DNA of 43,312 bases. Origin: a virus. Lineage: Duplodnaviria > Heunggongvirae > Uroviricota > Caudoviricetes. The notes beneath the pieces were generated by a model, which saw nothing but the letters and a program-made list of their open reading frames with translations, was not told the DNA's origin and searched no databases. Below are positions 11,805-35,186 of this stretch, piece by piece. The stretch's first letter is position 1. Every line of letters begins with the position of its first letter. Location of the stretch: IMG/VR virus record IMGVR_UViG_2565956616_000006, positions 1 through 43,312 of that record; one strand, 5' to 3'. A program made the position numbers and the translations under genes.

Positions 11805-11850
11805 ATTCGTAATGCGAAGGTCGTAGGTTCGACTCCTATTATCGGCACCA
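11805..11850 (+). tRNA. 3'-terminal 46 nt of tRNA-Thr(CGU) (anticodon loop to CCA); att core, not a complete tRNA gene
   Basis: ATTCGTAATGCGAAGGTCGTAGGTTCGACTCCTATTATCGGCACCA matches the 3' part of enterobacterial thrW as recalled; upstream 30 nt do not match the tRNA 5' half. Confidence 0.75.
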
Positions 11851-17040: not shown

Positions 17041-17635
17041 TTTCTTAACTTTCCATGCAGAAGCAACGCCTGACGGCGTAAACATCATGTACCGCAGCAA
17101 CGATGGCATGACAGAACGCGTTGAGGCCATCTCATATATTGATGCCGTAAATCGTCTGGATGCCGGGGATTATGACGATAAACCAGATGAAGGTATGTCA
17201 ATACATCTCGCTATTGCCGATGGCGGCAACCAGGGATATTTCGATTACACATCACAGCATAACGTCATTATGTGGAGATGGCTGATCGCAACAGTATTCA
17301 TGCTGGAAATGAGAGAGGAAAACGGCACTGTCAGCATCATTGATGATACTGGCAATCCTTCCGAAGTGGCTGTTTATTCCAACGGCATCGTCGCCATGCC
17401 GCTGTATCCAGTAGCAGAGCGCCTCGCTATGGCAAACAACATTGAGGGCGCGATGATAGAACGTTTTGGCATCGAGTCTGGCACAGAACGCGCCATCATT
17501 TTCTACAGAGCCATGATGGATGTGGAACAAGGAGCACTGACTCCATTTGGTCGTGAAACGCTTGCTGAACTTCACAACAGCTTTATAGCTGAACTGAATG
17601 AAAACGGCATGCCAGCGGAACCAGTGACGCACTGA
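17033..17635 (+). CDS. Hypothetical protein (200 aa)
   Basis: ATG at 17033 (MNNFLTFHAEA) within ORF 16928-17635. Confidence 0.5.
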   Translation: MNNFLTFHAEATPDGVNIMYRSNDGMTERVEAISYIDAVNRLDAGDYDDKPDEGMSIHLAIADGGNQGYFDYTSQHNVIMWRWLIATVFMLEMREENGTVSIIDDTGNPSEVAVYSNGIVAMPLYPVAERLAMANNIEGAMIERFGIESGTERAIIFYRAMMDVEQGALTPFGRETLAELHNSFIAELNENGMPAEPVTH

Positions 17636-17645
17636 GGATGGAGCC

Positions 17646-17987
17646 ATGATTACTAAAAATTTCCGACTGAATGCGCTGGCAAATAAGTATGCGTCGGCAC
17701 TGTATAACCACATTACCTCCACCAGCGGCGGGGACTATTTCATGGTTGATGCGGACGGCGAGGCCGTCCGTGTGGAAATCGTCAATGGAGTAAAAGGCGT
17801 TCGCAGCCTGATCGATAGCTACACACTGGCAGCCATGAAAGTGTTCTACCCGCAGTGGGAAACCGTGGGGATCGAGCTTCTTGAACGTTGCGTCACTAAG
17901 GACGGATTGACTGACGTCGGGCGTGAGATATGGCAAAGCATGGTTAATGACATGGGCGCAACTGTAGCGGGAGGTTCTCATGCGTGA
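17646..17987 (+). CDS. Hypothetical protein (113 aa)
   Basis: ORF in co-directional small-gene cluster upstream of primase. Confidence 0.5.
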   Translation: MITKNFRLNALANKYASALYNHITSTSGGDYFMVDADGEAVRVEIVNGVKGVRSLIDSYTLAAMKVFYPQWETVGIELLERCVTKDGLTDVGREIWQSMVNDMGATVAGGSHA

Positions 17988-18351
17988 AAATGCAGAAATG
18001 GCGCTTAGCTCAGCAATCGGAGAGCAGGTGGCAAAGATTGCTGGTGCTGTGTGGATTCATAACCTTCATTCTACTGGTGAAGAGAAAATGGTAATTCAGA
18101 CGCCAGAGGGACGCACCATTACTACATCTCTGAAGCCGTCAGATGTTTGTGATCTGATTTGCGCATTCATGTACCCAGCAATGAGGACTGTCCACGGCGA
18201 TAAGTGGAAACTTGCGACAACCGCTGAATTTGATATGTGGCTAAACAATGATGGCATGCTGACTGATTACGGAATAACCAAGTGGCAGATGCTGGTTAGC
18301 CATATCGCAAACGCTATAGACCACGTGGGGTACGGTGATGCGAAACATTGA
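17980..18351 (+). CDS. Hypothetical protein (123 aa)
   Basis: ORF overlapping neighbours by a few nt. Confidence 0.5.
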   Translation: MRENAEMALSSAIGEQVAKIAGAVWIHNLHSTGEEKMVIQTPEGRTITTSLKPSDVCDLICAFMYPAMRTVHGDKWKLATTAEFDMWLNNDGMLTDYGITKWQMLVSHIANAIDHVGYGDAKH

Positions 18352-21094
18352 TCTTATCCGTCAGGTTATCAGTGCGTCTGAAAACAACTGGCCTCATGTG
18401 CTGGGCTGCCTGAACATAAATGTCCCTGACTCTCCGCGCCGTCATGCTCCCTGCCCTGCATGTGGGGGCAAAGATCGATTCCGGTTCGATGACAACGGGC
18501 GCGGTAGCTTCATCTGTAATCAGTGCGGCGCTGGTGATGGGCTGGATTTAATTAAACGCGTAAATAACTGCGACACAACAGAGGCGGCGCTTCTTGCCGC
18601 TGATGTTCTGGGTATTGATTACCGGACAACGGAAACACCAGAAGCCACCAGCCAGAAACGGGAACAACTGGAAACCGAGCGCCAGCGACGCGAACAGGAG
18701 CGCCTGAAAAGGGCAGAGAAGGACGAACAACAAAGACGGGATACGTTTTCCCGTCAGTTTGATGACATGCGCAGAAAGGCTGTAAACGGCAAATCTGATT
18801 ATCTGGTTGCGAAAGGGGTAGGTGATTTTACATTCCCCGTGTTGCCCGATGGATCTCTGTTGCTGGCGCTGGTGGATAAATCCGGCGCAGTAACAGCAGC
18901 ACAGACTATTACCTCACATGGTGAAAAAAGACTCCTGACAGGTTCAGCAAAGCGGGGGGCATATCACGCCATAAACGCACCAGAAACAACACAGAGCATC
19001 TTAATCGCAGAAGGTCTGGCAACGGCATTATCTGCCCATTTAATTCGTCCAGAGGCGCTGACAGTGGCGGCGATTGATGCCGGGAACCTGTTATATGTCG
19101 CCCAGGTACTGCGGGATAAATTTCCTTCAGCACAAATCATCATTGCTGCGGATAACGACCACAGCGAAGGAAGACAAAACACGGGGAGAATAGCAGCAGA
19201 AAAAGCAGCTTTATCTGTTTCTGGATGGGTGGCATTACCCCCGACAGATCACAAAGCAGACTGGAATGATTACCACCAAAAACACGGCATTAAATGCGCC
19301 ACAGAAGCGTTCAATAAGTCAATGTACCAACCACAGGGTAATGGCGTGAAACAGGAGCCACAGACCATTGAGGGAAGCGATTTTAAGGTTATGGATACCG
19401 ACCCACTGAAACCAAGAATAGAAAGCCGCGAGGATGGTATTTATTGGGTATCTCCGAGAGCTGACAGCCAGAGTGGAGAAATCATCAATAACGAAAGCTG
19501 GTTATGTTCTCCGTTAAGCGTTATCGGTACTGGCAGAGACGATAAAGACCAGTATCTCATTCTTCGCTGGCTGTCGTTTGGTTCTGAAACGCCGACAACC
19601 GCTGCCATTCCACTGGCTGATATTGGTGAACGTGAAGGATGGCGCACACTTAAAGCTGGTGGGGTAAATGTCACGACCAAAAGCAGCCTCAGAGCAATAC
19701 TGGCAGACTGGCTACAACGCAGTGGCTCTCGTGAATTGTGGCGTGTTGCTCATGCCACTGGCTGGCAATGCGGAGCGTACATCATGCCTGATGGGGAAAT
19801 CATCGGAACACCTGAAAATCCTGTGCTGTTCAGCGGGAGAAGCTCAGCCGCAGCCGGATATACCGTCTCAGGGAGCGCGAAAAGCTGGCGTGATAACGTG
19901 GCGCGTCTGGCCTTTGGTAACTATTCAATGATGACCGGGATCGGCGCAGCACTGGCAGCGCCATTGATTGGGCTGGTGGGCGCTGACGGGTTCGGCATTC
20001 ATTTCTATGAGCAGTCGAGCGCAGGTAAGACCACCACGGCAAACGTGGCGAGCAGCTTATACGGCAACCCTGATTTACTGCGGCTGACGTGGTACGGAAC
20101 CGCGCTGGGGCTGGCAAATGAGGCCGCCGCCCACAATGACGGACTAATGCCGCTTGATGAAGTTGGTCAGGGCGCTGATCCTGTCAGCGTTTCACAGTCT
20201 GCCTATGCGTTATTTAACGGTGTAGGGAAACTGCAAGGCGCTAAAGATGGTGGAAACCGGGATCTAAAACGCTGGCGTACAGTGGCAATCAGCACCGGAG
20301 AAATGGATTTAGAAACATTTATCGCTACTTCCGGGCGAAAAACCAAAGCCGGGCAACTGGTGCGACTGCTGAATATTCCGTTGAGTAAAGCAGTACGCTT
20401 TCACGATTACCAGAACGGAAAACAGCACGCAGACGCACTGAAAGACGCTTACCAGCATCACCACGGCGCGTCCGGGCGTGAGTGGATTAAATGGCTGGCA
20501 CACCACCAGCAACAGGCTATTAAAACCGTTCGTGATTGCGAAAGCAGATGGAGAAGCCTGATCCCATCCGATTATGGTGAGCAGGTTCACCGTGTAGCCG
20601 CGCGATTTGCCATTCTAGAGGCCGCATTGTTGTTAGGCGAGGTTGTAACAGGCTGGGATGCTCAGACATGCCGTGATGCGATACAGCACAGCTATAACGC
20701 ATGGTTGCGCGAGTTCGGCACAGGTAACAAAGAGCATCAGCAGATTATTGAACAAACGGAGGCATTTCTTAATGCCTATGGGCTTAGCCGTTTTGCACCA
20801 TTTCCATACAGCCCGGCAGATTTGCCCATCAAAGATTTAGCCGGATACCGTCAGCGTGGAGAACATGACGAAAGCCCAATGATTTTCTACACATTCCCGG
20901 CCACATTTGAAAAGGAGATCGCATGTGGTTTCAACGCAAAACAGTTTGCTGAAGTGTTGAAAAAAGCCGGGATGCTAACCCCACCAAACAGCGGTCGTGG
21001 ATACCAAAGAAAATCACCACGTATTCAGGGACGACAAATAAACGTTTATGTACTCAATTACCAGCCAGGAGATTATAACTCATCTGAAGAATGA
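18335..21094 (+). CDS. Primase-helicase (P4 alpha-like: zinc-ribbon + TOPRIM primase + P-loop helicase domain)
   Basis: 919 aa; CPACGGKDRFRFDD...CNQCG zinc-binding motif, TOPRIM-like ILIAEGLATA and IIIAADNDH, Walker A-like SSAGKTT; followed by iteron cluster. Confidence 0.85.
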   Translation: MMRNIDLIRQVISASENNWPHVLGCLNINVPDSPRRHAPCPACGGKDRFRFDDNGRGSFICNQCGAGDGLDLIKRVNNCDTTEAALLAADVLGIDYRTTETPEATSQKREQLETERQRREQERLKRAEKDEQQRRDTFSRQFDDMRRKAVNGKSDYLVAKGVGDFTFPVLPDGSLLLALVDKSGAVTAAQTITSHGEKRLLTGSAKRGAYHAINAPETTQSILIAEGLATALSAHLIRPEALTVAAIDAGNLLYVAQVLRDKFPSAQIIIAADNDHSEGRQNTGRIAAEKAALSVSGWVALPPTDHKADWNDYHQKHGIKCATEAFNKSMYQPQGNGVKQEPQTIEGSDFKVMDTDPLKPRIESREDGIYWVSPRADSQSGEIINNESWLCSPLSVIGTGRDDKDQYLILRWLSFGSETPTTAAIPLADIGEREGWRTLKAGGVNVTTKSSLRAILADWLQRSGSRELWRVAHATGWQCGAYIMPDGEIIGTPENPVLFSGRSSAAAGYTVSGSAKSWRDNVARLAFGNYSMMTGIGAALAAPLIGLVGADGFGIHFYEQSSAGKTTTANVASSLYGNPDLLRLTWYGTALGLANEAAAHNDGLMPLDEVGQGADPVSVSQSAYALFNGVGKLQGAKDGGNRDLKRWRTVAISTGEMDLETFIATSGRKTKAGQLVRLLNIPLSKAVRFHDYQNGKQHADALKDAYQHHHGASGREWIKWLAHHQQQAIKTVRDCESRWRSLIPSDYGEQVHRVAARFAILEAALLLGEVVTGWDAQTCRDAIQHSYNAWLREFGTGNKEHQQIIEQTEAFLNAYGLSRFAPFPYSPADLPIKDLAGYRQRGEHDESPMIFYTFPATFEKEIACGFNAKQFAEVLKKAGMLTPPNSGRGYQRKSPRIQGRQINVYVLNYQPGDYNSSEE

Positions 21095-21112
21095 GCTTCT
21101 TCATGTGCGTAG

Positions 21113-21233
21113 AAAAGGTGTTGGTTCAGTTGGTTCAGTTGGTTCAATTTGTAAAGTGTATTGTTTTATAAGGATTTTATTCTTTTTATTGAACCAACAC
21201 TGAACCAACAACACGGTATTTTGAACCAACACA
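21113..21233. repeat. ori-like iteron cluster 1: 3x TTGGTTCA(G) direct, AT-rich spacer, 3x TGAACCAAC inverted
   Basis: Seen directly, immediately downstream of primase-helicase stop. Confidence 0.7.
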
Positions 21234-21280
21234 ATGTGACTGAATTGATGCGCACAACACCTGGCTGGCATCAGAGAGTG

Positions 21281-21356
21281 TTTTACGAGACTTTCGTAAA
21301 ATCCTGTGTACAAGGGCGTGACGTTTTTGAAAGTGAGCACTACGAAATTTTCGTAG
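21281..21356. promoter_or_regulatory. Two related palindromes (TTTTACGA-gactt-TCGTAAAA and CTACGAAA-t-TTTCGTAG), candidate operators
   Basis: Perfect 8-bp-arm inverted repeats about 60 bp apart in a non-coding stretch. Confidence 0.4.
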
Positions 21357-21551
21357 TTCAAAAAACAGCCTCTGAGAAGTTGTTATGCCTGTTCAGCAAA
21401 CCATCCGCATAGCTGATCGCGAATCAAATTACCAATGGAGCCAGAAGCAAGGGCAGAACTGAAAAGCGCCTGCCGTGAAGAGTAATGCGACACCATAAAT
21501 ATAGTTTTTAGAGTCCATAAAAAACCTGTCAAAACCTGACACACAGAACGA

Positions 21552-21583
21552 TGCCACCAGCTACTGAGCGGTGGCATTTTTTT
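21552..21583 (+). terminator. Rho-independent terminator
   Basis: TGCCACC-11 nt loop-GGTGGCA stem followed by T7; closes a ~330-nt ORF-poor stretch downstream of ori 1. Confidence 0.65.
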
Positions 21584-21678
21584 GTGCTATTTGTTTCATA
21601 TTTTGCAATTACTATGATGAATATTGCGATTTGTGAAACTATAATAACTGTTGTTTTATACAGTTCTAAGGGGGCGTT

Positions 21679-21840
21679 ATGGCTATTTCAGTAAAGCCGG
21701 TATTGATAAGTGAGAAGCAAATGGAAGCGATAAAGAAAATTCAGGAAGAGCAGCGTAAAAAATCAGGAATTGGAGTAGCGCCAACTCTGCATGAAATTGC
21801 ACGAGGGTTAATAGATAAGGCGCTGGCAGGCTGTATGTGA
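21679..21840 (+). CDS. Small hypothetical protein (53 aa), first gene of cargo operon
   Basis: ATG with AAGGGGGCG RBS; below the 60-aa cutoff of the ORF track; translated by hand (MAISVKPVLISEKQMEAIKK...). Confidence 0.4.
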   Translation: MAISVKPVLISEKQMEAIKKIQEEQRKKSGIGVAPTLHEIARGLIDKALAGCM

Positions 21841-21856
21841 AAATGGATGGCATCGC

Positions 21857-22318
21857 ATGGAACTAAAATTTATTGATAACCCTGTGCGATTACAGGCCTT
21901 TCTTAACGAGCCAGGCAATACCGAAAATATTGTTGAGCCGGGGCACACGTACTACATCAAGCCTGATGCGGTATATCTCGGCATCTACGAAGGATTGGTG
22001 CTGGCTGGCGTTCATGAAGTGCGTAACTTCTGGCATAGCATTGTTGAATGCCATGCGGTGTACGACCCCGGATTCCGTGGTGAATATGCACTGCAAGGGC
22101 ATCGATTATTCTGCAAATGGCTTCTCGAAAACTCACCATTCCTTAACAGCATTACCATGGTTCCTGACACCACCAAATACGGACGGGCAATTATCCGTTT
22201 GCTTGGCGCTACCCGTGTTGGTCACCTTGATGATGCTTATATCAGATGTGGTAAACCCGTCGGCGTAACGCTTTATCAGTTAACTCGGCAACAATATAAG
22301 GAATTCAGCGAATGTTAA
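21857..22318 (+). CDS. gp14-like protein, island copy (153 aa)
   Basis: Weak but colinear similarity to the prophage gp14 at 2699-3154 (e.g. FDCHAMYLPEVRG vs VECHAVYDPGFRG; VTFYSATREE vs VTLYQLTRQQ); same size; precedes gp7-like gene. Confidence 0.55.
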   Translation: MELKFIDNPVRLQAFLNEPGNTENIVEPGHTYYIKPDAVYLGIYEGLVLAGVHEVRNFWHSIVECHAVYDPGFRGEYALQGHRLFCKWLLENSPFLNSITMVPDTTKYGRAIIRLLGATRVGHLDDAYIRCGKPVGVTLYQLTRQQYKEFSEC

Positions 22319-22989
22319 TTACCCACATAGCTCATAAACATCTCAATCGTGCCGTATACGAAAAAGGCGGTGATGGTGGTGCCTCTAAAGCTCAGGCGAA
22401 GGCCCAGCAGCAGGCAATTGATTTGCAGCGCGAGCAGTGGAATACGGTGATGAATAATCTCAAGCCGTATGCAGAAGTCGGATTGCCTGCTTTACAACAA
22501 CTACAAGGACTGATGACTCTGGAAGGGCAGAATAAAGCCGCGAATGATTTCTTTGGTTCTGGTTTATATAAAACACAGGCAGATCAGGCCCGTTATCAGA
22601 ACCTTGTCTCAGCAGAAGCTACCGGGGGGCTTGGCTCAACAGCTACCAGTAACCAGTTATCTTCCATTGCGCCCATGCTTTATAACAATTGGCTTAGTGG
22701 GCAAATGCAAAATTATGGAAACCTGCTAAATGTCGGGATGAATGCGGCATCAGGGCAGGCAACAGCAGGGCAAAACTACGCCAATAATACCGGGCAACTC
22801 TTGCAGGGGCTTGGCGCTATTCGTGCAGGTCAGGCGCAGCAGCCATCCAGTCTTGCGCGTGGTATTGGTGGGGCGGCATCAGGCGCTTTAGCGGGTGCGC
22901 AACTTGGTTCCGTTGTTCCGGGTATAGGTAATGTCGCCGGGGCTATTGGTGGTGGGCTTATTGGTCTTGTTGGGGGGCTTGGATTCTAA
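22312..22989 (+). CDS. Ejection protein gp7-like, island copy (225 aa)
   Basis: Clear similarity to prophage gp7 at 3157-3852 (NT.MNNLKP..., ARYQ.L..AEATGGLGSTATSNQL..IAP...WLSGQM.NY.NL, Gly-rich C-terminus). Confidence 0.75.
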   Translation: MLITHIAHKHLNRAVYEKGGDGGASKAQAKAQQQAIDLQREQWNTVMNNLKPYAEVGLPALQQLQGLMTLEGQNKAANDFFGSGLYKTQADQARYQNLVSAEATGGLGSTATSNQLSSIAPMLYNNWLSGQMQNYGNLLNVGMNAASGQATAGQNYANNTGQLLQGLGAIRAGQAQQPSSLARGIGGAASGALAGAQLGSVVPGIGNVAGAIGGGLIGLVGGLGF

Positions 22990-24410
22990 TGGCGACATGG
23001 CAACTTGGCGGGCTGCCTAGCATGGCACCGCAAAATGATAATGCTCCTCGTTCTTCCGTTCCTCAGCCTGTGCAGTATCAGCAGCAGCCAAACGTAGGTT
23101 TAATGGCGCTACAGGGGCTAAGAGGCGTTGCTGAGATTAATCAGCAGGCACGTCAACAACAGCGTAAAGCAGAGTTTCAGAAAGCATATGCCGGGGCTTT
23201 TGAGTCTGGAGACAGAAACAAAATGCGCAGTCTTATTTCTGAGTATCCAGAAGAATTTGAAAGCGTTCAGAAAGGGATGGGCTTTATTGATGACGACCAG
23301 AGAAATTCTATTGGTCATCTTGCGACTAGTGCTCAAATCGCATCTTCGCTCGGAACTGGGGCATTTGGAAAATTCATAGCAGATAACGAAGATGAAATGC
23401 GTCGCTTGGGAATTTCTCCTGAGTCTGTTGCCGAAATGCATGTTAATGATCCACAGGGATTCCAGCGGCTTGCTGGTAGTATGGCACTGTTTTCTCTCGG
23501 TCATGAGAAGTATTTCGATATCAAAGATCAAATGGAAGGTCGGGATATTGAGCGTGGCAAGTTGGCAGAAACAATCCGCAGCAATCAGGCTGGCGAAGCA
23601 CTTCAGGCGAGAGGGCAGGATATTAGCCGAGCAAATGCGTTAACGTCAGCATATGCACCAACAGCAGCAATGCAGAATTACAATCAGTACGCTCAAATGT
23701 TAAAGGAGGATCCAGAGGGGGCGGCGGCATTTGCGGCAGCGGCTGGAATTAATACAAACGCCAAAAAATTAATGAGTGTTAGAGAAAACGATGATGGCAC
23801 TGTCACAAAATACTACACAGACGGAAGTGAAGAGCAGGGAAAACTAAACCAGCCAATATCTGGAGATGGGTTTCGTCCAATAGCTTTGCCAACAGCCCAA
23901 AAGATCATGGAAAAGTCGCCAGAAGGGGCTAAAAAAGCTGCTGGATTTGCATACAGGGTTAGGGATGCTCTTGATTCAATAGATACACTGAAAGACCAGC
24001 TTAGCCCACAGCGAGTGGCGATCATTAATAATGCTTTGGGTAATGGGACGCTGGCTAACTTAACGCTCAGCCCAACAGAGCAGCAATACGTTGTTAATGC
24101 TAATGACGCAATAATGGCAATACTCCGTCAGGAAACAGGGGCAGCTATCGTACCTGCTGAAATGTCAAAATATTATCAAATGTATTTCCCTCAGCCTGGC
24201 GACTCCACAAAAACCATTGATACCAAGCGCCGGAAGATGGAAAACCAGTTCAATTCGCTGAAAGCTGCTTCTGGTCGAGCTTATGATGCTTTGCGGGTTA
24301 TTTCAGCAGTTGACAGAGGAACTTCTTCTTCGTCGCAGACATTGCCGCAATCTGAGCAGGTATCACAGCCAGCAGCCAGCAGTAACTTTTCTTCACTATG
24401 GGGTGATTAA
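22989..24410 (+). CDS. Ejection protein gp20-like, island copy (473 aa)
   Basis: Starts MATWQ like prophage gp20; shared block [22 protein letters not shown]; similar length. Confidence 0.75.
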   Translation: MATWQLGGLPSMAPQNDNAPRSSVPQPVQYQQQPNVGLMALQGLRGVAEINQQARQQQRKAEFQKAYAGAFESGDRNKMRSLISEYPEEFESVQKGMGFIDDDQRNSIGHLATSAQIASSLGTGAFGKFIADNEDEMRRLGISPESVAEMHVNDPQGFQRLAGSMALFSLGHEKYFDIKDQMEGRDIERGKLAETIRSNQAGEALQARGQDISRANALTSAYAPTAAMQNYNQYAQMLKEDPEGAAAFAAAAGINTNAKKLMSVRENDDGTVTKYYTDGSEEQGKLNQPISGDGFRPIALPTAQKIMEKSPEGAKKAAGFAYRVRDALDSIDTLKDQLSPQRVAIINNALGNGTLANLTLSPTEQQYVVNANDAIMAILRQETGAAIVPAEMSKYYQMYFPQPGDSTKTIDTKRRKMENQFNSLKAASGRAYDALRVISAVDRGTSSSSQTLPQSEQVSQPAASSNFSSLWGD

Positions 24411-26515
24411 TGGCTAAAGCATGGAAAGATGTTATCGCCTCTCCACAGTATCAGGCGTTAGCACCAGAACAAAAAGCGCAGGCTCAGGAGCAATACTTCA
24501 ATGAAGTCGTTGCCCCGCAAGCCGGAGAAAGTGTAGAGCAGGCTAAGCAGGCTTTTTATGCTGCCTATCCACTACCATCAACGAATGAAATAGACCGAGC
24601 CCAATCAGCAACTCAAAATATTCAACATACATCATCTGATAATTCTCTTGCGTCAGGGTATGCAAAGTTAGCTACTCAGCAAAGAGAGGGGCTTGAGCGT
24701 TCAGCAGAACAGGGAGCCAGCCTTGGGGCTGCGATGCGCGATGCTATAACAGGCGAAAGCCGAATGACTCCAGAGATGGAGAGACTGCAAAATGTCGACC
24801 TTGCCCCAGAGTTAACCTCACTCAGCATGGATGCTCTAAAAGCTCGATGGTCTCAACTTTTCGGCTCTGACGCATCTCAGGAAAAGATTCTTCAGAGCAT
24901 GGGAGCGAAATTAAGGCAGGATGAGAAGGGTAACACTATCGTTTCCCTGCCATCCGGTGATTATGCTCTGAACAAGCCGGGTTTATCGCCGCAAGACGTG
25001 GCATCGTTTCTGGCTAATGCGCTGGCGTTTACACCAGCGGGCAGGGCCGGAACGGTGCTGGGGGCCATAGGGAAATCAGCAGCTACAGATTTAGCACTAC
25101 AGGGAGCCACCAGCCTCGCTGGTGGAGAAGATATTGATCCGTTACAAACGGTAATTTCTGCTGGCATTGGTGGTATTGGTAAGGGGCTGGAAAATACAGC
25201 GAGTGCGGTTTCGAGGGCTGTTCGTGGTGATATGTCGCCTGAAGCAAAGGCTGCTGTCGACTTTGCATCGGAAAGAAATCTGCCGTTAATGACCAGTGAC
25301 ATGCTGAAAGATAAAACCTTTATGCAGAGTCAGGCTCAGACATTAGGCGAAAGAGTTCCTTTTTTTGGAACCGGTAAGAATCGGCTGAATCAACAACAAG
25401 CACGAGAAAATTTAGTCAGAACATTTAGCGATGGTCTGGGTGGCATTTCTGATAAACAGCTTTATGAATCTGCGACTAAAGGGCAACAAAAATTCATTGA
25501 GGCAGCAGGAAAGCGATATAACCGCATAATTGACGCTATGGGGGATACCCCTGTCGATCTCTCAAACACGGTAAAAGCTATCGACAATCAGATTGCTGTG
25601 TTAAGCCGCCCGGGTAAATCTCAGGATAGAGCCGCGGTAAAAGTCTTGCAGCAATTTAAAGACGATATCACCAGCGGACCAAATGACCTGCGTCTGGCGA
25701 GGGAAAACAGAACCGATCTTCGAAAGCGGTTTATGGCGTCATCTGACACTGTTGATAAAGATACGCTCCAGAAAGCCAGCGATATTATCTACAAGGCATA
25801 TACGGCGGATATGAAAAAAGCCGTAGCCAAAAATCTTGGAGCAGACGAAGCCATTAATATGGCAAGGGTTGATCGCTCATGGTCTAAATTCAATGACATG
25901 ATGGGAAGAACGCGCGTTCAAAAGGCAATAGCCAGCGGCAAGGCCACGCCTGAGGATGTAACAAAACTCGTTTTTAGCCAAAGCCCATCAGAACGTTCTC
26001 AGCTTTACAGGCTTCTGGATGACAATGGTAGGCAAAACGCACGAGCAGCCATAGTTCAGAATGCTGTAGATAAGGCGACTGATCCGTCTGGAAATATCAG
26101 TGTTGAGAAGTTTATTAATGCGTTACACCGGAACAGGAAGCAATCAGCAACTTTCTTTAAAGGCGTACATGGAAAGGAACTGGACGGCGTTATTAAATAC
26201 CTCAACGATACAAGACACGCGGCAAAAGCGAACGTTCAAAACTTAAATGGTCAGCAGCTTTATGGATTGTTAGTTGGTGGTGGCATCATAAACGCAGCAG
26301 TATTAGCGGGGATGCTAAAAACGGCTGCGTTTGTTGTTCCTGCTGCTGGTGCCGTAGGCGGAGCCGCGAAGGCATACGAAAGCCCTGTTATACGAAATGC
26401 CTTGTTACGTTTGGCAAATACGCCAAAAGGTAGCACAGCATATGACAGAGCGATCAGTACGGTCACACAATCGCTCACCAGAGTCGCACAGGCATCACAA
26501 AAAGAAGCTCAATAA
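24410..26515 (+). CDS. Ejection protein gp16-like, island copy (701 aa)
   Basis: Colinear similarity to prophage gp16 (AVAKNLGA...; C-terminal [16 protein letters not shown]); position after gp20-like. Confidence 0.7.
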   Translation: MAKAWKDVIASPQYQALAPEQKAQAQEQYFNEVVAPQAGESVEQAKQAFYAAYPLPSTNEIDRAQSATQNIQHTSSDNSLASGYAKLATQQREGLERSAEQGASLGAAMRDAITGESRMTPEMERLQNVDLAPELTSLSMDALKARWSQLFGSDASQEKILQSMGAKLRQDEKGNTIVSLPSGDYALNKPGLSPQDVASFLANALAFTPAGRAGTVLGAIGKSAATDLALQGATSLAGGEDIDPLQTVISAGIGGIGKGLENTASAVSRAVRGDMSPEAKAAVDFASERNLPLMTSDMLKDKTFMQSQAQTLGERVPFFGTGKNRLNQQQARENLVRTFSDGLGGISDKQLYESATKGQQKFIEAAGKRYNRIIDAMGDTPVDLSNTVKAIDNQIAVLSRPGKSQDRAAVKVLQQFKDDITSGPNDLRLARENRTDLRKRFMASSDTVDKDTLQKASDIIYKAYTADMKKAVAKNLGADEAINMARVDRSWSKFNDMMGRTRVQKAIASGKATPEDVTKLVFSQSPSERSQLYRLLDDNGRQNARAAIVQNAVDKATDPSGNISVEKFINALHRNRKQSATFFKGVHGKELDGVIKYLNDTRHAAKANVQNLNGQQLYGLLVGGGIINAAVLAGMLKTAAFVVPAAGAVGGAAKAYESPVIRNALLRLANTPKGSTAYDRAISTVTQSLTRVAQASQKEAQ

Positions 26516-26533
26516 CTGGTAGCCATGGATGGC

Positions 26534-27148
26534 TTAGATATCTCTGCTGTCTCCATTAGGAAATAAAAGATAATATGGATTTGCCTTTCTTGCTCTCCTT
26601 GCTTCACCTGGATACCTGTTAGTCAGTAGTTTGCATAATGAGCAGAGAACAACACTCAAGAAAATTCCGAATGAGAAGATCAATATCTCACCAAAAATCA
26701 ATGGCGATATTAAATTTTCAGGATTTAATGATAAGTCAATGTTAAAAACATATTGAGCAATACCAGTAAGTATCAATAATATAATCCCTATGGAATACAT
26801 TGCTGTTTCCCAAACATCAGACAGTCTATTTTTGAATTGTTCGCTGGAGTAGTAGTTTGTTATAAAGTCAGAAAAATCACTCTCATATGCATCATCTTTA
26901 GGTGATGTTAGAAATCCTCTGTCTCTCCATACCTTCTCCCAATTAGTCGATTCTTTTTTTAAGGAAAAATAAATATGTATTGCCAAAAGGATAGCCAAAA
27001 TTGGTGTTAGCTCTAAAAAATAGAATGTTATGGAATAAATAATACTGCCATGTTCAAACTCATCTGGGACTATCATGTATGCACAAAAATAAATTGAAAA
27101 GTACACCATGCAGATAGTTAGCAATTCTTTAGTATCTTTTCTGCTCAC
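26534..27148 (-). CDS. Low-GC integral membrane protein (about 4 TM helices), candidate exclusion/abortive-infection factor
   Basis: 204 aa, hydrophobic segments, AT-rich codon usage unlike neighbours; convergent with gp16-like gene, in the position where P22 carries sieA. Confidence 0.5.
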   Translation of the reverse strand: MSRKDTKELLTICMVYFSIYFCAYMIVPDEFEHGSIIYSITFYFLELTPILAILLAIHIYFSLKKESTNWEKVWRDRGFLTSPKDDAYESDFSDFITNYYSSEQFKNRLSDVWETAMYSIGIILLILTGIAQYVFNIDLSLNPENLISPLIFGEILIFSFGIFLSVVLCSLCKLLTNRYPGEARRARKANPYYLLFPNGDSRDI

Positions 27149-28017
27149 ACCAACCCCCTTTAGCGTTGTTTAGAATGGCAATCATCATATATCCAAGACA
27201 TGGCATTTGGTACATAGCTTGGGTCGGGATTTCAAATCCGATCCCCGTTGATGGGGCCGTTACAGTACGCGCATATCCGCTTTATGTGAAACAGGAAGAT
27301 TTTTCTGATATCACTGCCACAGCAAAACACCAATTTCGTGACCAGTACGCGCGCGAGGGGTATCAGTTGCAAAAATTTTGCAACTACGTCCGACCAGTAC
27401 GCACACGATGGCGGGGGATACCATGAAACTGTTCTCTACACGAGACAGAGTGGTGGTGATGTGTTGATTATCGGCGTATATGCGCACAGGACGCGCTATG
27501 ACGATGTTTTATGCGGGTACACCAATCACATGTATCTGATGTGATAAATCGTGTTACATGACATCTCATGTTGTGCTGGTGGTTATCACGACGTTCTGAA
27601 TCTGGCCTTTGCCTGATATTTTGCGACAAGTACGCGCGCGTAGCATCGAAATTATCGGATGGCGTATGCTGCTGGCAATATGAAGACCGATAGTATTAAC
27701 CGAAAAGCGATTAAGGAGTGCCAACTTTTCAGTAGAGAAACTAGCCAGCATAGGAAAATGTAGAAATTACCCAATTAATAGGTAAAAGTTATTGACACAG
27801 CCTGTAGTGGATAACGATATGAATAAAAACCACATATAGTGGTTTTTCGTGAGTGATGATAGTATCTATGTTAGTTTCCTAAGTAACTGTGCATTGACAT
27901 GTGGATAACTTCGGATAGAGTTACAGGCAACCGAGCCCGATCCTCTGTTTCTCCGCCGCCGATTTCAGGCATGTGAGTTTCACGGTCGGGCCTTTTATTA
28001 TCTTTTGTTTCGCCACT

Positions 28018-28995
28018 ATGATTGCCGCAAAGCCTCATAAGGACTATCACGAATTGCTAGGATTGCTACTTGAACGTGGCATGATTATCAATGATCGAAA
28101 TCGTGCGATACGTAAGCTGTCGCAGGTTGGATATTATCGATTGTCAGGTTTTTGGTACCCATCAAGAATTATTGCGACAACAGATAAAGGTCTTTCGTAC
28201 AGAACAGACCGATTTCTTGCTGGTACCAGTTTCGAGAAGACGTACGATCTATATCTTTTTGACAAAAAACTGCGTCTTTTGATGATTGATGCTATCGAAA
28301 GAATAGAGATTCATGTTCGTTCAGTCATCGCGCATGAGGTTGGTCGCAATGATCCACTTGCCTACATGTCATCAAAATACATTAATCCAAAATTCTCATC
28401 TGCCTTCGAGCATTGGGTGTATAAGCAAAAAGTAAAATTAGACGAAAGCAGAGATGACTGTATTGAATGGCATCGAAGCCAAGGCAAGGAGATTCCATTT
28501 TGGGTGGCGGTGGAGACCTGGGATTTTGGTCAGATGTCTAAATATTATGCGATGCTTAATGGTCATATGCAGGGGAAAATTATACGTCGTTTTGGCATTG
28601 ATAATAAGCAGACATTTGCAAAATGGTTGAAGTGCCTTAATCTCATAAGGAATCGTTGCGCTCACCATTCCAGAATATGGAATAGAAAGCATCCCCGAGT
28701 TCCAGTACCGGATAATGAATACTTTGACGGACTTAATCTCCATCCAGAGAGTTGCGAGAGGATTTTTAGCGCGATCTGTATTATCTGGTACTTAGTTAAA
28801 CGACTTGGTCCGGGATCAACATGGCTTCGGCAAATTGCAGACCTTATTGACTCTAAACCAAATGTTCCCGGATGTGGATATGATTCAATGGGTTTACCTG
28901 CTAAAGGATTCCCACGAGAGAGATTCTCTCAGGACTTAGGTTTTGTTATCGCCGACAACGACCCTGTAGCTGAAGGGCGGAAAGGGAGCGATTGA
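28018..28995 (+). CDS. Abortive infection protein, Abi_2 (AbiD/AbiF-like) family
   Basis: N-terminal motif KPHKDYHELLGLLLERGMIIND...VGYYRLSGFWYP typical of AbiD/AbiF-like proteins; ORF track start 27973 is GTG, ATG at 28018 preferred. Confidence 0.65.
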   Translation: MIAAKPHKDYHELLGLLLERGMIINDRNRAIRKLSQVGYYRLSGFWYPSRIIATTDKGLSYRTDRFLAGTSFEKTYDLYLFDKKLRLLMIDAIERIEIHVRSVIAHEVGRNDPLAYMSSKYINPKFSSAFEHWVYKQKVKLDESRDDCIEWHRSQGKEIPFWVAVETWDFGQMSKYYAMLNGHMQGKIIRRFGIDNKQTFAKWLKCLNLIRNRCAHHSRIWNRKHPRVPVPDNEYFDGLNLHPESCERIFSAICIIWYLVKRLGPGSTWLRQIADLIDSKPNVPGCGYDSMGLPAKGFPRERFSQDLGFVIADNDPVAEGRKGSD

Positions 28996-29024
28996 GCGAT
29001 AAATATCATTTATACACTGATCAA

Positions 29025-29453
29025 TTACTGAAGCAGCGTATTGATTCTTTTAATATTGTTACCCTGACGCTTCCACGCGCTGTAAATGTCTTTATCCCAC
29101 GCTTTACCAGCTTTTGTTTGGTAGCCTGCTTCATTGAGCCGTTCCGCTATCACACGCCCATTATCAAATCCCTGTCGGATGGTATCGGCAATGATCTTTA
29201 TAACTGCCGTTTCGTTATATGGCTTTGGTGGGATGTTCGGCTTTCCGGCAATAAGCGACGCAGCGGCTTTTTCCATGCGCTCCACCAGCCCAAGCATTCG
29301 TGAATCAATAGACTTTTCCGGCTGTCCCAGCTTCATGCGAATCGCATCAACAAGCCAGGAGGTTTTATCCCCTCCAGAAGCGAGAACAGACCGATTAAAC
29401 TCATCCTGCAATTCAGATGGGATGCGGAACGCGACCAGATTAGATTTGCTCAT
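29025..29453 (-). CDS. Putative transcriptional regulator with ribbon-helix-helix N-terminus
   Basis: MSKSNLVAFRIPSELQDEFNRSVLASGGDKTSWLVDAIRMKL resembles Arc/CopG-type RHH; start taken at internal ATG 29453. Confidence 0.45.
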   Translation of the reverse strand: MSKSNLVAFRIPSELQDEFNRSVLASGGDKTSWLVDAIRMKLGQPEKSIDSRMLGLVERMEKAAASLIAGKPNIPPKPYNETAVIKIIADTIRQGFDNGRVIAERLNEAGYQTKAGKAWDKDIYSAWKRQGNNIKRINTLLQ

Positions 29454-29562
29454 TGCAAAGACCATATCAGTGAGTAATATCCATACAGTATACCACTGTA
29501 TAACACTGTTATACGCTCAAATATCAGCCAGAAAATAACGGACCAATCACAAAGCTATCGCT

Positions 29563-29696
29563 GTGTTGTTGGTTCAGAGCTGGGCTGTGTTGGTTCAAAA
29601 TGAGTTGATGTTGGTTCAATATTTCAGAAAAAACACAATAAAAACAACGATCTTTACAAATTGAACCAACTGAACCAACTGAACCAACACCTTTTT
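29563..29696. repeat. ori-like iteron cluster 2, inverted copy of cluster 1
   Basis: Reverse complement of 29652-29695 is identical to 21113-21156 (44 bp); same TTGGTTCA/TGAACCAAC content in mirrored order. Confidence 0.7.
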
Positions 29697-29724
29697 GCTT
29701 ATCTATATAATCTGAGAGGCAGAA

Positions 29725-30012
29725 ATGATAAGGGACAGGAAAGCTGAAGAACTGGAGTCAAAAGGGCTATACCGGAGAGCTGCCGCACGATGGGCAGAAG
29801 TCATGATGCTGGCAGATGGCGATAAAGAACGTGAACATGCAGCAAACAGACGCTCTGAATGTATCCGTAAGGCGGCACGCCCACCAGCAACTACAGACAG
29901 ATTCGGAGATTTAAGACAGGCAGTTAAGCGGACTCATTCGGCTCTTGGTATGGATGAGGAAGCGAGAGGGTATTTCAGGCGTTATCGCGATAAAGATTGC
30001 CAGAGACAGTAA
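29725..30012 (+). CDS. PerC-family-like transcriptional activator (95 aa)
   Basis: N-terminus MIRDRKAEELESKGLYRRAAARW resembles PerC-like proteins (from memory). Confidence 0.45.
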   Translation: MIRDRKAEELESKGLYRRAAARWAEVMMLADGDKEREHAANRRSECIRKAARPPATTDRFGDLRQAVKRTHSALGMDEEARGYFRRYRDKDCQRQ

Positions 30013-30354
30013 TGCTCTCTCTGTTTTGGCAAATTACCCCTCACTTTGAAGGGATCGGAGCTATAAAAATGGTGTTATCCGGCTTCCTGCATTGCAGGTT
30101 TTCGAAAGAATCAATGGGTTAGGTTATCGTGCAAATTTGCACTCTGCCAGCCAACGCAATTTCTCGTTGGCGGAAATATCAGGTATTTACTGAACGAACG
30201 GTCTACCCGCCTGTTCAACTACCAGTTGTACATGGCTGCTTTATGTGCAAATGGTGGTGAGAGAAAATTGTTTGGGGGTACTTTTGGGGGTATCTCCAAA
30301 GATGTAACTGGAAAATGTCTTTATATATCAATGTATTTTTATTGTTTGTTTTGT

Positions 30355-30372
30355 TCCTATTATCGGCACCAT
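30355..30372 (+). repeat. att direct repeat copy B (TCCTATTATCGGCACCAT)
   Basis: Exact 18-nt copy of the tRNA 3' core. Confidence 0.8.
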
Positions 30373-30975
30373 CAAGAAAATCAATAACTTAGCTTAACTT
30401 CTCTAAGAAATTGTATCTTCTGTTATCACTTACAAACGCCTATACGTTGTTATGGGCTTTGGTAGTGTAACACGTATGGGCGAGTAGTTCCCAGGCTCAA
30501 CCTCGTAACAAGTTCCTTTGAAGCTGGAAGACGTGCCACCGTCTCTAAACCTTCTACCAAAACTCTTAGCAAGATGTTCCACACCTGGCGCGGTGTCCAA
30601 TGATGCCACACGTCGTGAGACGTTGCAGAGGATAAACAGGCTAAATGATGGGAAGAGTTTTAAGTGCAATAGTGGATTAAAGCCCACCTCTTCAAAACCT
30701 AACTTGATCGGGAAAGAATCAAGCTCTAGCACGGTTTCGTCCACCGGAGTACAACGGGTGCCTGATAAGAGAAGAACTGCTAAGACTTCATAGCTTTTGT
30801 GAAAAAGCCCTTTTAGTGGATACGCCTACGGCGCTTATTTTTTGGTATAACCATCAAAGGCGCTTTATGGCTCCTATTGTCTTGAAAATGTATCTTTACT
30901 TGTATTGTGTTTTATGCGTAGTCTCCCTGTGTAGTATGTAACTTGTTAATTTTCATATGAATACAGAGGCACACG

Positions 30976-31134
30976 ATGAAAAACATTGCAGCTATCAAAC
31001 GTAATAACCGCAAGATTCACGCTCGTAAGTTCCTGTCTACGCCAGAAGGAAAAGCCTGGCTAGAGCGTAAACAGAGAGAGAACGAAGAAAGAAAACTCCT
31101 TAGTGAGTTGAAATGGCTTAGAGAGGATTTCTGA
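30976..31134 (+). CDS. Small basic hypothetical protein (52 aa)
   Basis: ATG with GAGG RBS; hand translation MKNIAAIKRNNRKIHARKFLSTPEGKAWLERKQRENEERKLLSELKWLREDF. Confidence 0.3.
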   Translation: MKNIAAIKRNNRKIHARKFLSTPEGKAWLERKQRENEERKLLSELKWLREDF

Positions 31135-31299
31135 AAATCTCCAGAACGCAACAGGGCGCATTCTAACGCTGTTTTCATTGCTCGGTATAGGGATGTATAG
31201 GTGATGTGTGTTTAATGCGTCTGTGAGCTTGTTTTATGTCTTATTTTGCATTTTCATAATGCAGGAGAGAACACGGAAAGCCTTAAAATTAATTATTGG

Positions 31300-31340
31300 G
31301 GTATTTAAGGCTATTTTTAGGGTATTTAAGGGTATTAAAC
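31300..31340. repeat. Direct repeats of GGTATTTAAGG (2 full + 1 partial), followed by phased TAAATA A-tracts to about 31460
   Basis: Seen directly; AT-rich, ORF-free. Confidence 0.5.
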
Positions 31341-31478
31341 TTGATTTAATTGATTAAAATATAAACAGATAATTATGTATCTTATTGATTTATAAGGTTA
31401 TTTTTAAATAAAGGTAAATAAAAAATAAATAGCCATAAATAGCTATAAATACATCTAAATACCTATATCCCTTCCCTT

Positions 31479-31886
31479 ATGGCTAGATTGCGAGAGGTGC
31501 TTAACGCGATTTTTAGCGCCCCCCGATCTGGAAAATCCAGAATCCCCAAATATCAGCAAGGAATTTTCTTGCGTAATCAACATCGTTTTTACCTATTAAA
31601 TCATTACACAGAAAGCCTTTCTGTAATGTCTCTCACTAAACTTTCACTAAACACGAGAATGATCGGTTTTATGTCGGATCAGATGCTAGAAACAGCACCA
31701 CGTCTCACAAGGGCTGTAAGCGATGAAACCAGTGTTTATGCGGGTGCAGGTCAAAATATAGGCCAAAGTCCATTTAACATAATAAACGTAATATGCACTA
31801 AGGAACACATAGAACGCCTTGAGTTGATGTATAAGGGGAAAAGTGGTGGATTTTTTTACGTAGGAGCACGAGAGGGCTTCTATTGA
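31479..31886 (+). CDS. Hypothetical protein (135 aa; real start may be internal)
   Basis: ORF in AT-rich region, no clear RBS. Confidence 0.3.
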   Translation: MARLREVLNAIFSAPRSGKSRIPKYQQGIFLRNQHRFYLLNHYTESLSVMSLTKLSLNTRMIGFMSDQMLETAPRLTRAVSDETSVYAGAGQNIGQSPFNIINVICTKEHIERLELMYKGKSGGFFYVGAREGFY

Positions 31887-32266
31887 CTTTTGTATGCTAT
31901 GAAATATAATAGAAGGTTTTTATTTTTATGTTGATAGTGATTGCACATTAAAGATTGAAAGCAAATTTAAACATAAATTTTCAACACGTGAAAGAACTTG
32001 TTCGACAAATGATAGAACGTTTATTGAGCAACAATTTTGCAGTGATGCGCTATATGCCGCATAACATAAGGCTTTGCTGATGATGACGCAAAAGTGAAGA
32101 AAGCTAACATTGCACTTTTTAAGCTACTTTTCATTGGATTTTTACGTAGGAATTACACAGGGATTAATCATCAATTACATTGAATTTAAGCCTGTTTTAG
32201 ATGTTTAATTTTGGTAGCAAGAAACACTTTTAGAAGATCATTGCACAGATGTTATGTGATAAATGG

Positions 32267-32426
32267 ATGTAACGATGGGTTACATTCAGCTATCTGAAAT
32301 ACTCTCTGTAAGAAATTTGGTAGTAACGATTCGTTACATAGACTAATTATTGAATGTAACGATATTACACATCGGTAGTAACGATTCGTTACATCGGCAG
32401 ATGATTGGTTGTAACGAAAGGTTACA
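32267..32426. promoter_or_regulatory. Array of five palindromic sites, consensus (T)GTAAC-N5-GTTAC(A), spaced about 56, 32, 22 and 33 bp
   Basis: Sites at about 32267, 32323, 32355, 32377 and 32410; two copies are identical (GTAACGATTCGTTAC). Confidence 0.55.
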
Positions 32427-33149
32427 CAATAAGACTAACATCTATAATACTAATAATAAAACTAACTATTAAACTATATAATATAATTCTTTTTTATCTT
32501 TATAAGAATAATTATAGGGATACCCGTTAGGGAGTCTAACGACTATCCCTTAATCTATTGGCATTCGCCAGAACCTTGCACAAGTTAGAGTGTTAGTCGT
32601 TAGACTGATACTTCTCATAACACATAGTTTTTTGTTTGTTGATGTTAGTTAGTAGATCTATGTTCGCTAATGCCGCTCACAACGAATATGTAATCTACTA
32701 TGTGCAAATAGCCTACGGCTTGCGTAAGGCTAAATAGTCTATGCGCTGTGCGCTTCAATAGTTCCATTGATGAGGCTTACGCCAATCTAACGATCATCAA
32801 TCTATTTAAGAGAAAATCTATTGTGCAATACTCTGACGAGTGCAATAACCTTGTGTGCTACGCGTTAGCGATGTTAGCACATAGACACAGACAACAACCA
32901 ACAACAAACAAAAAAGAAAGAATGGTTTTAGTAGTTGAAGGTTAAATAAGATTCTACCGCTTAAATCAAGCCTCTGGCGAGCTAAACAACCTCTACATAA
33001 GGGAATGTATTGTTTTTATCAAATACCTCGTTAGAACGCGTTTTAGAGCGTTTTAGAGAATAAGGAAGAATAGGAGCACTCGTAAGAGCACGAATTGCTA
33101 AGAAAAATTATAACACACTGAAAATGATCAATATTTTTATGGCCAGGGG

Positions 33150-33178
33150 TTGACAAAAGCTTTTAGTTATGGTAAAGT
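33150..33178 (+). promoter_or_regulatory. Sigma70-type promoter (TTGACA-17 bp-TAAAGT)
   Basis: Consensus -35 at 33150-33155, 17-bp spacer, -10 at 33173-33178, upstream of the island-2 small-gene cluster. Confidence 0.5.
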
Positions 33179-33301
33179 AATATTAGGGACAGGAAAACAT
33201 TCCTATCCTCTAAATAATTAAACCAATGCACCGCACTTTGAAGCCCAAGAGGCTTGCAAGGTGTCTTTTTCTTTTAACCAAATAGAATAGGAGGTTAATT
33301 A

Positions 33302-33484
33302 GTGAAGTATTTCACTTCTCAAGATGTAGTTGAAGCCTGGAAACGTGGTGAGATCAACCGCTTTAGGGTAAGAATGAATAGGAACACAGCGCGACGCTGT
33401 GGTTATCCAGAGCGTGAAAAATGTTTTGACGATGCACTGAAAATTATTGATGAACTGCGTAAGGCAGGAGCAGAGAAAGAATAA
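33302..33484 (+). CDS. Small hypothetical protein (60 aa)
   Basis: GTG start with AGGAGG RBS 7 nt upstream. Confidence 0.45.
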   Translation: MKYFTSQDVVEAWKRGEINRFRVRMNRNTARRCGYPEREKCFDDALKIIDELRKAGAEKE

Positions 33485-33505
33485 TAACAGGAGAAGGAGA
33501 AAACT

Positions 33506-33673
33506 ATGAGCGAAACCAAGAAACCAATTCCACGCACTTACCTACACGTTGACCCTGAAATTTTCAAGATTTTATTTGCTGAAGCCAAGAAAAGGCAAAT
33601 TATGGTCAGTGATTTGATGTTAGAAATCATTACTGAAGCAGCAGAGAACATCAAACAAAAAAAGGGTAAGTGA
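33506..33673 (+). CDS. Small hypothetical protein (55 aa), possible RHH/partition-like DNA binder
   Basis: ATG with GGAGAAGGAGA RBS; hand translation MSETKKPIPRTYLHVDPEIFKILFAEAKKRQIMVSDLMLEIITEAAENIKQKKGK. Confidence 0.45.
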   Translation: MSETKKPIPRTYLHVDPEIFKILFAEAKKRQIMVSDLMLEIITEAAENIKQKKGK

Positions 33674-33726
33674 TCCTCATTCACTTTAGTAGCGCATTAA
33701 GCGTGATTTATAAGGAGATAATTCTA

Positions 33727-34407: not shown

Positions 34408-34416
34408 GGAGAATAA

Positions 34417-35169: not shown

Positions 35170-35186
35170 AAATAAAAGGAACAACA

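Follow-up and report, generated by a model that had tools for sequence, protein, structure and literature searches.

The DNA analysed here, called the window throughout, is the whole of a 43,312-nucleotide viral stretch (IMG/VR record IMGVR_UViG_2565956616_000006) that comes from Escherichia coli. The att core TCCTATTATC occurs in it three times, at 11834, 30355 and 42759, where 0.03 copies would be expected, and the first two of these cores therefore bound a single 18.5-kb integrated element, 11834-30364. With TCCTATTATC as direct repeats at thrW and the synteny int-alpA-...-primase-DNA-transfer genes-perC, this element is a phage-inducible chromosomal island (PICI) of the EcCIMP1 family. Its left part carries an integrase, an AlpA-type regulator, an antirepressor, the ash/icd region, a 919-aa primase-helicase and a cluster of iterons, U1, which adjoins the primase-helicase gene. 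The right part continues with gp14, gp7, gp20 and gp16 paralogues, a variable stretch (Abi), a minus-strand gene for 146 aa, the distal iteron cluster, U2, and perC. The two clusters and the protein that probably reads them are the subject of this report, and the features concerned are the following.

18335..21094, plus strand: PriRep, fused primase-helicase-initiator of 919 aa, with Zn-ribbon, Toprim, DUF927 helicase and C-terminal domain (Pfam)
21008..21025, plus strand: codons for PriRep residues 892-897 (RKSPRI), a patch covarying with the iteron, from the alignment of iteron classes
21113..21233, plus strand: U1, putative origin unit adjoining the PriRep gene, from the iteron search and self-comparison; an equivalent unit lies 3′ of the gene in 45 of 45 relatives with clear iterons
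29563..29696, minus strand: U2, putative second origin unit, inverted, from the iteron search and self-comparison; conserved across genera
29689..29711, plus strand: conserved outer flank of U2, CACCTTTTTGCTTATCTATATAAT, between the tight iterons and perC

The motif TTGGTTCA occurs 15 times in the window, and 12 of these copies fall within U1 and U2; shuffled sequences hold 1.68 copies on average and 6 at most, none of 100 shuffles reaching 15. U1 starts 19 nt past the PriRep stop codon. It consists of three tightly spaced iterons GTTGGTTCA (at 21120, 21129 and 21138, spanning 21120-21146 at a 9-bp pitch), a 43-bp spacer of 84% AT (21147-21189), and three loosely spaced iterons TGAACCAAC (at 21190, 21201 and 21222, spanning 21190-21230 at a pitch of 11+21). 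U2, 8.4 kb downstream of the PriRep gene, has its loose iterons, GTTGGTTCA, at 29568, 29589 and 29610 (29568-29618, pitch 21+21), a 43-bp spacer of 79% AT (29619-29661), and its tight iterons, TGAACCAAC, at 29662, 29671 and 29680 (29662-29688, 9-bp pitch). The AT content of the whole island, for comparison with the two spacers, is 53%. The tight triplet comes first in U1 but last in U2, so that one cluster is an inverted copy of the other. The inverted arms (21113-21167 and 29641-29695) extend over 55 nt at 93% complementarity, and within them a core of 44 bp is exactly identical (21113-21156 and, inverted, 29652-29695). An earlier note on this DNA had described two inverted clusters of 3+3 repeats, each with an AT-rich spacer, and a common 44-bp core; both coordinates and content are as it claimed, and the self-alignment that it had proposed as a check bears it out. 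Its suggestion that the first cluster abuts the primase-helicase gene as a satellite origin would also agrees with where U1 lies and how it is built.

The origins of Staphylococcus aureus pathogenicity islands (SaPIs) and other PICIs have 6-12 iterons just after the rep gene, half on each side of an AT-rich centre and in opposite directions. The initiator binds these iterons with a C-terminal winged-helix domain, melts the centre and loads itself, probably as two hexamers (PMC9371898); Gram-negative PICI origins have the corresponding layout (PMC6092414 Fig. 2a). Opposed iteron sets around an AT-rich region are found in both units of the window (3+3 iterons in each), and a position immediately 3′ of the initiator gene in U1 and not in U2. 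Judged by the published layout, each unit is thus, in sequence, a complete SaPI/PICI origin. The likeness to the origins described by Qiao et al. (2022) lies in the opposed iteron sets, the AT-rich centre and the place of U1 directly after the initiator gene. The difference is that the window has two complete, differentiated and inverted units, 8.3 kb apart and with genes between them, whereas the papers on SaPI and PICI origins consulted here (PMC9371898, PMC6092414) describe one origin only, 3′ of the rep gene.

The N-terminal Zn-ribbon/Toprim region of PriRep is 33% identical to the primase of P4 alpha (E 2e-41). P4 alpha aligns with only the N-terminal ~350 residues of PriRep, the remainder being unalignable, and residues 403-814 (DUF927) match PDB entry 8tch, deposited as "Pathogenicity island protein" (E 2e-11). 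Because a P4-like primase region is joined to an 8tch-matching helicase core, PriRep is a primase-initiator fusion, like PriRep5 of SaPI5. For the C-terminal domain, a PDB sequence search with residues 781-919 gave no meaningful match, and a single-sequence AlphaFold model of residues 700-919, at pLDDT 44, is unusable for its fold.

Relatives were sought with PriRep as query against a collection holding one genome per species. The scan returned 64 distinct loci (cited below by locus number, L), about 50 of them in Enterobacterales with proteins 54-99% identical; of these, 45, each from a different species, have clear iterons. Both units are adjacent in 21 of the 45, within about 300 bp past the primase stop codon at most. 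In 11 they are split by 0.5-8.8 kb, as in the window (L013, L017, L018, L021, L026, L031, L038, L051, L055, L059 and L060). The adjacent layout runs: tight array, AT spacer, loose iterons, a central CCTGGCTGGCAG-like motif, one or more loose iterons, a second spacer and an inverted tight array. Across genera the two units keep distinct types, U1 with a loose pitch of 11+21 and an outer flank of CATGTGCGTAG type, and U2 with a loose pitch of 21+21 and an outer flank of TATATAAGCAAAAA type; versions of the latter flank (e.g. CAC..TTTTTGCTTATAT) stand 3′ of the second unit in split and adjacent-type relatives alike. The spacers of U1 and U2 are almost always 43 bp, with a mean AT content of about 77%, and split-type U2 copies, that of the window included, keep the AT-rich 43-bp spacer. 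We rejected, as a general rule, the idea that cargo was inserted into a simple origin, the adjacent-type second unit being no more than the right half of the window's U2: it is true for only part of these loci (L033, L042), and the others have a GC-rich 34-bp spacer.

What lies between split units differs by genus. In E. coli the genes are those of P22-type ejection proteins; in other genera they encode SLT-domain, tape-measure, or Dit/hub/spike proteins, together with Beta-protein, Fic, DUF2971 or Abi genes. Therefore the split is old and the payload exchangeable, yet U2 has been kept.

The iteron itself varies among lineages, in at least seven forms: GAACCAAC, GAGACAAC, GAACCGAC, ACGGGTTA/GTGGGTTA, TGGGCTAA, TGGGATAA and AACCGACC. 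The two units of an island always carry one common variant, also where they are split (L060 with CTTATCCC, L038 with GGTCGGTT), and island-specific single-base changes in the tight repeats are mirrored between U1 and U2 (L004, L026, L055). Of the 919 aligned PriRep positions, only seven distinguish all 22 proteins of the GAACCAAC class from all 6 of the GAGACAAC class, and five of the seven are residues 892-895 and 897 (QRKSPRI against QGRV-RE); the remaining iteron classes also differ at 892-897. Since the class-separating residues concentrate there, the extreme C-terminus of PriRep is likely, on this covariation, to be the reader of both units.

A natural replacement of the replicon bears on the dependence of U2 on this protein. 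In 119 of 5426 complete E. coli genomes, the island backbone has a different replicon in place of the C-terminal half of PriRep and U1. The breakpoint is inside the primase-helicase gene: the N-terminal primase region (~215 aa) is kept, and a DUF5906 helicase follows beyond about residue 215. The helicase, the DNA-binding part and the adjacent origin (U1) were thus exchanged as one block, and U2 was left without its cognate protein. The iterons of the replacement are ACCTGTACCACCTATACCA; the swapped locus lies at 8312-11912 in L005 and is also present in L072-L081. We compared U2 in nine swapped islands with U2 in 11 islands that keep the cognate PriRep. Three further loci were uninformative: L006 (O111 strain), an IS-rearranged remnant, and two that could not be scored, L080, in which an IS66 insertion puts U2 out of range, and L081, which is short and payload-free. 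Among the nine orphan copies, two have lost one tight repeat (L072, L074), one has a G-to-A change in a tight repeat (L075), and four share one and the same 108-bp deletion, which takes out the third loose repeat along with the spacer, tight array and flank (L073, L077, L078, L079). In the cognate islands the tight array and spacer of U2 are intact in 11 of 11, the sole variant (L004) being mirrored in U1. Damage in 7 of 9 against 0 of 11 gives a Fisher p of 5e-4, for lineages that are not independent and that represent at least three separate lesions. The neighbouring perC is intact in every swapped island scored, the four with flank and tight array deleted included. These comparisons show that U2 is kept only with its cognate protein and that it depends on PriRep. 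In the replacement DUF5906 replicon, too, the iterons form two inverted clusters, which stand 1.2 kb apart with two small genes between them; the two-unit inverted design recurs with an unrelated helicase.

Taking these observations together, we lean, by a modest balance, toward reading U1 and U2 as two units of the EcCIMP1-family PICI replication origin, here 8.3 kb apart with the payload between them. The earlier note had offered three readings of the pair, a bipartite origin, a recombination scar of cargo acquisition and the ends of an invertible or mobilisable module, and of these a bipartite origin is the best fit to the comparative evidence. We propose that PriRep would read the 9-bp iteron GTTGGTTCA through its extreme C-terminal domain, bind both iteron sets, melt the AT-rich centre and load itself as helicase. 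U1 would be the canonical origin directly 3′ of the gene, and U2 a second, differentiated unit, of the kind placed back-to-back with U1 within about 300 bp in most relatives. In the lineage of the window, the payload of ejection-protein paralogues, Abi and the 146-aa gene lies between the units, and U2 would still cooperate with PriRep during replication, whether by offering a second loading site or by serving as a cis partner similar to crr of P4. In its exact role U2 could be a second origin, a crr-like partner, a copy-control site or a promoter operator.

Several observations weigh against a replicative role for U2. The decay of orphan copies shows dependence on PriRep, which falls short of a replication role as such; moreover, two of the nine orphans (L005, L076) are intact. 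In the sequence available (10-kb flanks), 13 of the 45 relatives show a single unit, U1, and not every island therefore needs a second one. Among the adjacent-type origins examined, about half have a conserved, GC-rich second spacer of 34 bp (32-38% AT), and therefore the invariant part of the second unit is the inverted tight array with its outer flank; in those lineages this favours an auxiliary binding site, be it a crr-like partner, a copy-control site or an operator, rather than an independent origin. Finally, whatever the arrangement, a rightward gene begins directly beside U2, and a regulatory role for it is possible.

That last point can be developed into an explanation of its own, in which U2 is mainly a transcriptional switch operated by PriRep, coupling expression of the right-end genes to the phase of replication. 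U2 does occupy a divergent intergenic region (29466-29724); its tight array ends 37 nt ahead of the perC ATG, with TATAAT at 29706, inside the outer flank, and the flank beyond the tight array is conserved in split and adjacent-type relatives, with a rightward gene next. The GC-rich second spacers of many adjacent-type origins imply that melting is not a conserved property, and decay upon loss of PriRep would be expected of an operator just as well. An operator, however, would have no obvious need of the three loose iterons at 21-bp pitch and the 43-bp spacer of ~77% AT that split-type U2 keeps. Promoter and terminator scans around U1 and U2 called no sigma-70-like site, leaving the U2 flank uncalled, and an RNA-family search found no match at either unit. 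Furthermore, the gene downstream of U2 varies by genus, and perC is intact in the four islands that have lost flank and tight array. We regard an operator as an unlikely account of U2, although one to be taken seriously. A different kind of control is known from plasmids: incA of P1 and incC of F are second iteron clusters off the origin, read by the origin's initiator, which are direct repeats with no AT-rich centre and act negatively. U2 resembles them in carrying the origin's iterons in a second cluster, apart from the origin and dependent on the same protein, and some relatives manage without it, as they might if U2 titrated the initiator or handcuffed the origin and were dispensable for initiation. 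Against such copy-number control stand the complete origin layout of U2, AT-rich spacer included, which is unlike a plain direct-repeat array, and the consideration that a satellite amplifying fast after helper induction has little obvious need for restraint. We consider this quite improbable.

Two explanations remain. U2 might be a leftover of duplication or rearrangement during payload acquisition, functionless now. Part of that idea stands, since the payload does sit inside an origin whose units are adjacent in most relatives. Orphan copies can stay intact, as in L005 and L076, and recombination has occurred within U2: in L084 (18480-18604) and L087 (18560-18683) the loose half is chimeric, the first loose repeat and its flank being of a third type and the rest of the window type, and therefore a recombination breakpoint lies inside U2. 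The part that fails is the expectation of decay, for U2 is maintained. Genera with unrelated genes between the units and a PriRep only 63-75% identical still have the exact iteron number, pitch and spacer length in U2. Where its tight repeats have changed, those of U1 have changed likewise, and it decays only upon loss of the cognate protein; a scar is therefore a very improbable explanation. As for the ends of an invertible or separately mobilisable cassette, the inverted, 55-nt, 93%-identical arms are what such a module would have. We searched 5426 complete E. coli genomes, at a query coverage of at least 80%, for the junction predicted from recombination of the arms: the inverted junction was found in none and the native junction in 361. 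Gene and Pfam annotation showed no invertase or transposase gene between or beside the arms and no recombinase gene between them, and the mobile unit is defined by the att sites outside both clusters and by the published excision junction. As far as fixed variants are concerned, an invertible segment is therefore not supported, and we give a mobile or invertible cassette next to no credence. The description of the clusters as bracketing a cargo segment is accurate in that genes lie between them, but those genes do not form an independent or recently acquired module, both clusters being inside the single PICI delimited by the att cores at 11834 and 30355.

For an origin in two parts, phage P4 provides a precedent, its alpha primase-helicase binding both the ori and the crr iteron clusters. 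The earlier comparison of the window with P4 ori/crr is apt. Both are small satellite replicons with two distant clusters of one iteron, one cluster abutting the 3′ end of the primase-helicase gene, and their primase domains are homologous (33% identity). Even the design of a single crr unit, by its GenBank annotation, is similar: two tight iterons at 9-bp pitch, a spacer and inverted loose iterons. The systems differ in that P4 has a pair of 120-bp direct repeats as crr and, as ori, a third cluster of another build, whereas the window has a single inverted unit per site; in the helicase and DNA-binding parts of alpha, which are unrelated to those of PriRep; and in the iteron, TGTTCACC in P4 and GTTGGTTCA in the window. 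Separated clusters of the same iteron are thus found in both, while a full alpha-family protein and two direct 120-bp crr repeats are absent from the window.

The other features of the island are listed here.

11834..11843, plus strand: left att core of the PICI, TCCTATTATC, in partial tRNA-Thr (thrW) sequence; the same core as in EcCIMP1 (PMC11773190)
12016..13230, plus strand: PICI tyrosine integrase (Pfam Phage_integrase, Arm-DNA-bind_3, Phage_int_M)
21061..21069, plus strand: left copy of a 9-bp inverted pair flanking U1, CCAGCCAGG, from the motif search
21260..21268, plus strand: CCTGGCTGG motif, right copy of the pair flanking U1; at the origin centre in adjacent-unit relatives
21857..26515, plus strand: payload between the units, paralogues of P22 gp14 (DUF2824), gp7, gp20 and gp16 (Pfam DUF2824, P22_gp7, Inj_translocase)
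27973..28995, plus strand: Abi_2 abortive-infection gene, in the variable part of the payload (Pfam Abi_2, E 2e-52)
29025..29465, minus strand: 146-aa gene, transcribed away from U2, which it adjoins in L013, L017, L018 and L021 (tblastn)
29725..30012, plus strand: PerC-family regulator, last gene of the PICI (Pfam PerC, E 3e-33)
30355..30364, plus strand: right att core of the PICI, shared with the next element as its left core, from the att core search

The short inverted pair around U1 recurs among the relatives: in 26 of 52 loci CCAGCCAG closely precedes U1, and in 22 of 52 CTGGCTGG closely follows it, at a background of about one such motif per 5-8 kb (for CCAGCCAG, about one per 8.5 kb). 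A copy of the motif also lies 3′ of the first iteron cluster of the unrelated DUF5906 replicon (L005, 10810-10823). Because that replicon has only the primase domain in common with the window's, CCAGCCAGG...CCTGGCTGG might be a candidate priming site. In L026 and L031 the motif is GCTGGTGG, the E. coli Chi sequence. The 600-bp non-coding stretch from U1 to the ejection-protein genes contains two near-perfect palindromes, TTTACGAGACTTTCGTAAA (21282-21300) and CTACGAAATTTTCGTAG (21340-21356), close copies of which, with 1-2 base changes in the first, are kept in the swapped-replicon island L005 at about 12000-12080; they may be an operator or a packaging signal.

Compared with their counterparts in the neighbouring P22-like prophage, the payload's ejection proteins show only 23-54% identity; the end of that prophage occupies the DNA upstream of the island (1-11.8 kb) with a stabilisation protein, gp14/gp7/gp20/gp16 and a tailspike. 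Within E. coli islands the ejection-protein genes are the conserved part, and only the stretch from the gp16-like gene to U2 varies; the Abi_2 gene is absent or replaced in sister islands. Payloads for DNA delivery lie at 21857-26515 in the window, 14632-18042 in L018, 16228-18912 in L059, 13002-16125 in L026, 16258-18012 in L021 and 14448-16250 in L017. A satellite's own copies of the helper's ejection or penetration machinery are thus recurrent across this PICI family. The 146-aa protein matched no family in a Pfam search. Its gene accompanies U2 in split-origin islands and stands alone in adjacent-type islands; upstream of it are repeats, ACAGTATACCACTGTATAACACTGTTATAC in E. coli (window 29480-29515) and a tandem GTAAGACAG-like pair before the homologues in other genera (L017, L018, L020, L021, L022, L037).

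Two of the relatives deserve mention in their own right. L033 (Yersinia pekkanenii) has three complete adjacent-type origins within 6 kb, at offsets of -4534, +48 and +1229 from the primase end, which suggests a tandem duplication of the origin region or of the island. L008, in a record titled Chryseobacterium sp. 18061, is an island with a PriRep 78% identical and an Enterobacterales-type gene order in a genome labelled Bacteroidota, and may be a mislabelled or contaminated assembly.

At thrW the window holds three elements in tandem, separated by copies of one att core: 1-11833, 11834-30364 and 30365-42768. The third, of 12.4 kb, has its own integrase (41337-42701, minus strand) and a Dit-like protein (40587-41255). 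The gene at 37284-38315 corresponds to one that carries the annotation major capsid protein in L001, a relative 99.3% identical; it has no Pfam match here. In the ash/icd region of the PICI, two Rfam matches above the gathering score, the isrK Hfq-binding RNA (15689-15766, 67 bits) and the C4 antisense RNA (15829-15916, 79.5 bits), form a pair that resembles the P1/P7-type antisense immunity module.

Sister islands 99-100% identical to that of the window have the same unit pair in the same layout, both at thrW and, with a different integrase, at yicC/dinD. EcCIMP1 itself is a 19,963-bp island of E. coli MP1 that is excised and transduced only upon induction of the P22-like phage Kapi1 (Pick, Stadel and Raivio, ISME J 2025; PMC11773190). 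It is like the window island in att core, thrW site, gene order, PriRep and both units, which lie within its experimentally mapped boundaries, and unlike it in the variable genes, the window having Abi and its own versions of the gp16-like protein and of the perC allele. The publication makes no mention of an origin, iterons or a second cluster, and it reports that current satellite classifiers score EcCIMP1-like islands as incomplete (PMC11773190). Already known are the element, the layout of a single-unit origin and the precedent of P4 ori/crr. The conserved origin of two inverted units, the payload that splits it, the candidate patch for specificity and the decay of orphan units are not described in the papers on EcCIMP1 and on PICI origins consulted here.

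In the excised 18.5-kb circle, U1 and U2 would lie at the ends of arcs of 8.3 and 9.9 kb. A bolder proposal, which we hold rather improbable, is that the satellite origin is an obligatory two-part, palindrome-like device, with one PriRep hexamer per inverted unit and the gap as a built-in slot for cargo. If so, the conserved units would be homology anchors for swapping ejection, tape-measure, baseplate and defence payloads among satellites, and payload dosage could rise, even ahead of excision, when the two units that face each other across it fire.

The more modest reading, of two origin units with payload between, would add a new architecture to those of satellite origins: a conserved origin of two inverted units, with room for kilobases of genes in between. 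Such islands would also be a natural setting in which to ask if two sites are needed by a self-loading helicase-initiator, and how widely they may be spaced. PriRep residues 892-897 and the iteron bases provide a candidate recognition code, in which QRKSPRI would go with GTTGGTTCA and QGRVRE with GTTGTCTCA. As a simple sequence signature, the pair of units could serve to annotate EcCIMP1-like islands. Since the variable region is bounded by the element's two most conserved non-coding sequences, the arrangement may also explain where these islands store and exchange their payload.

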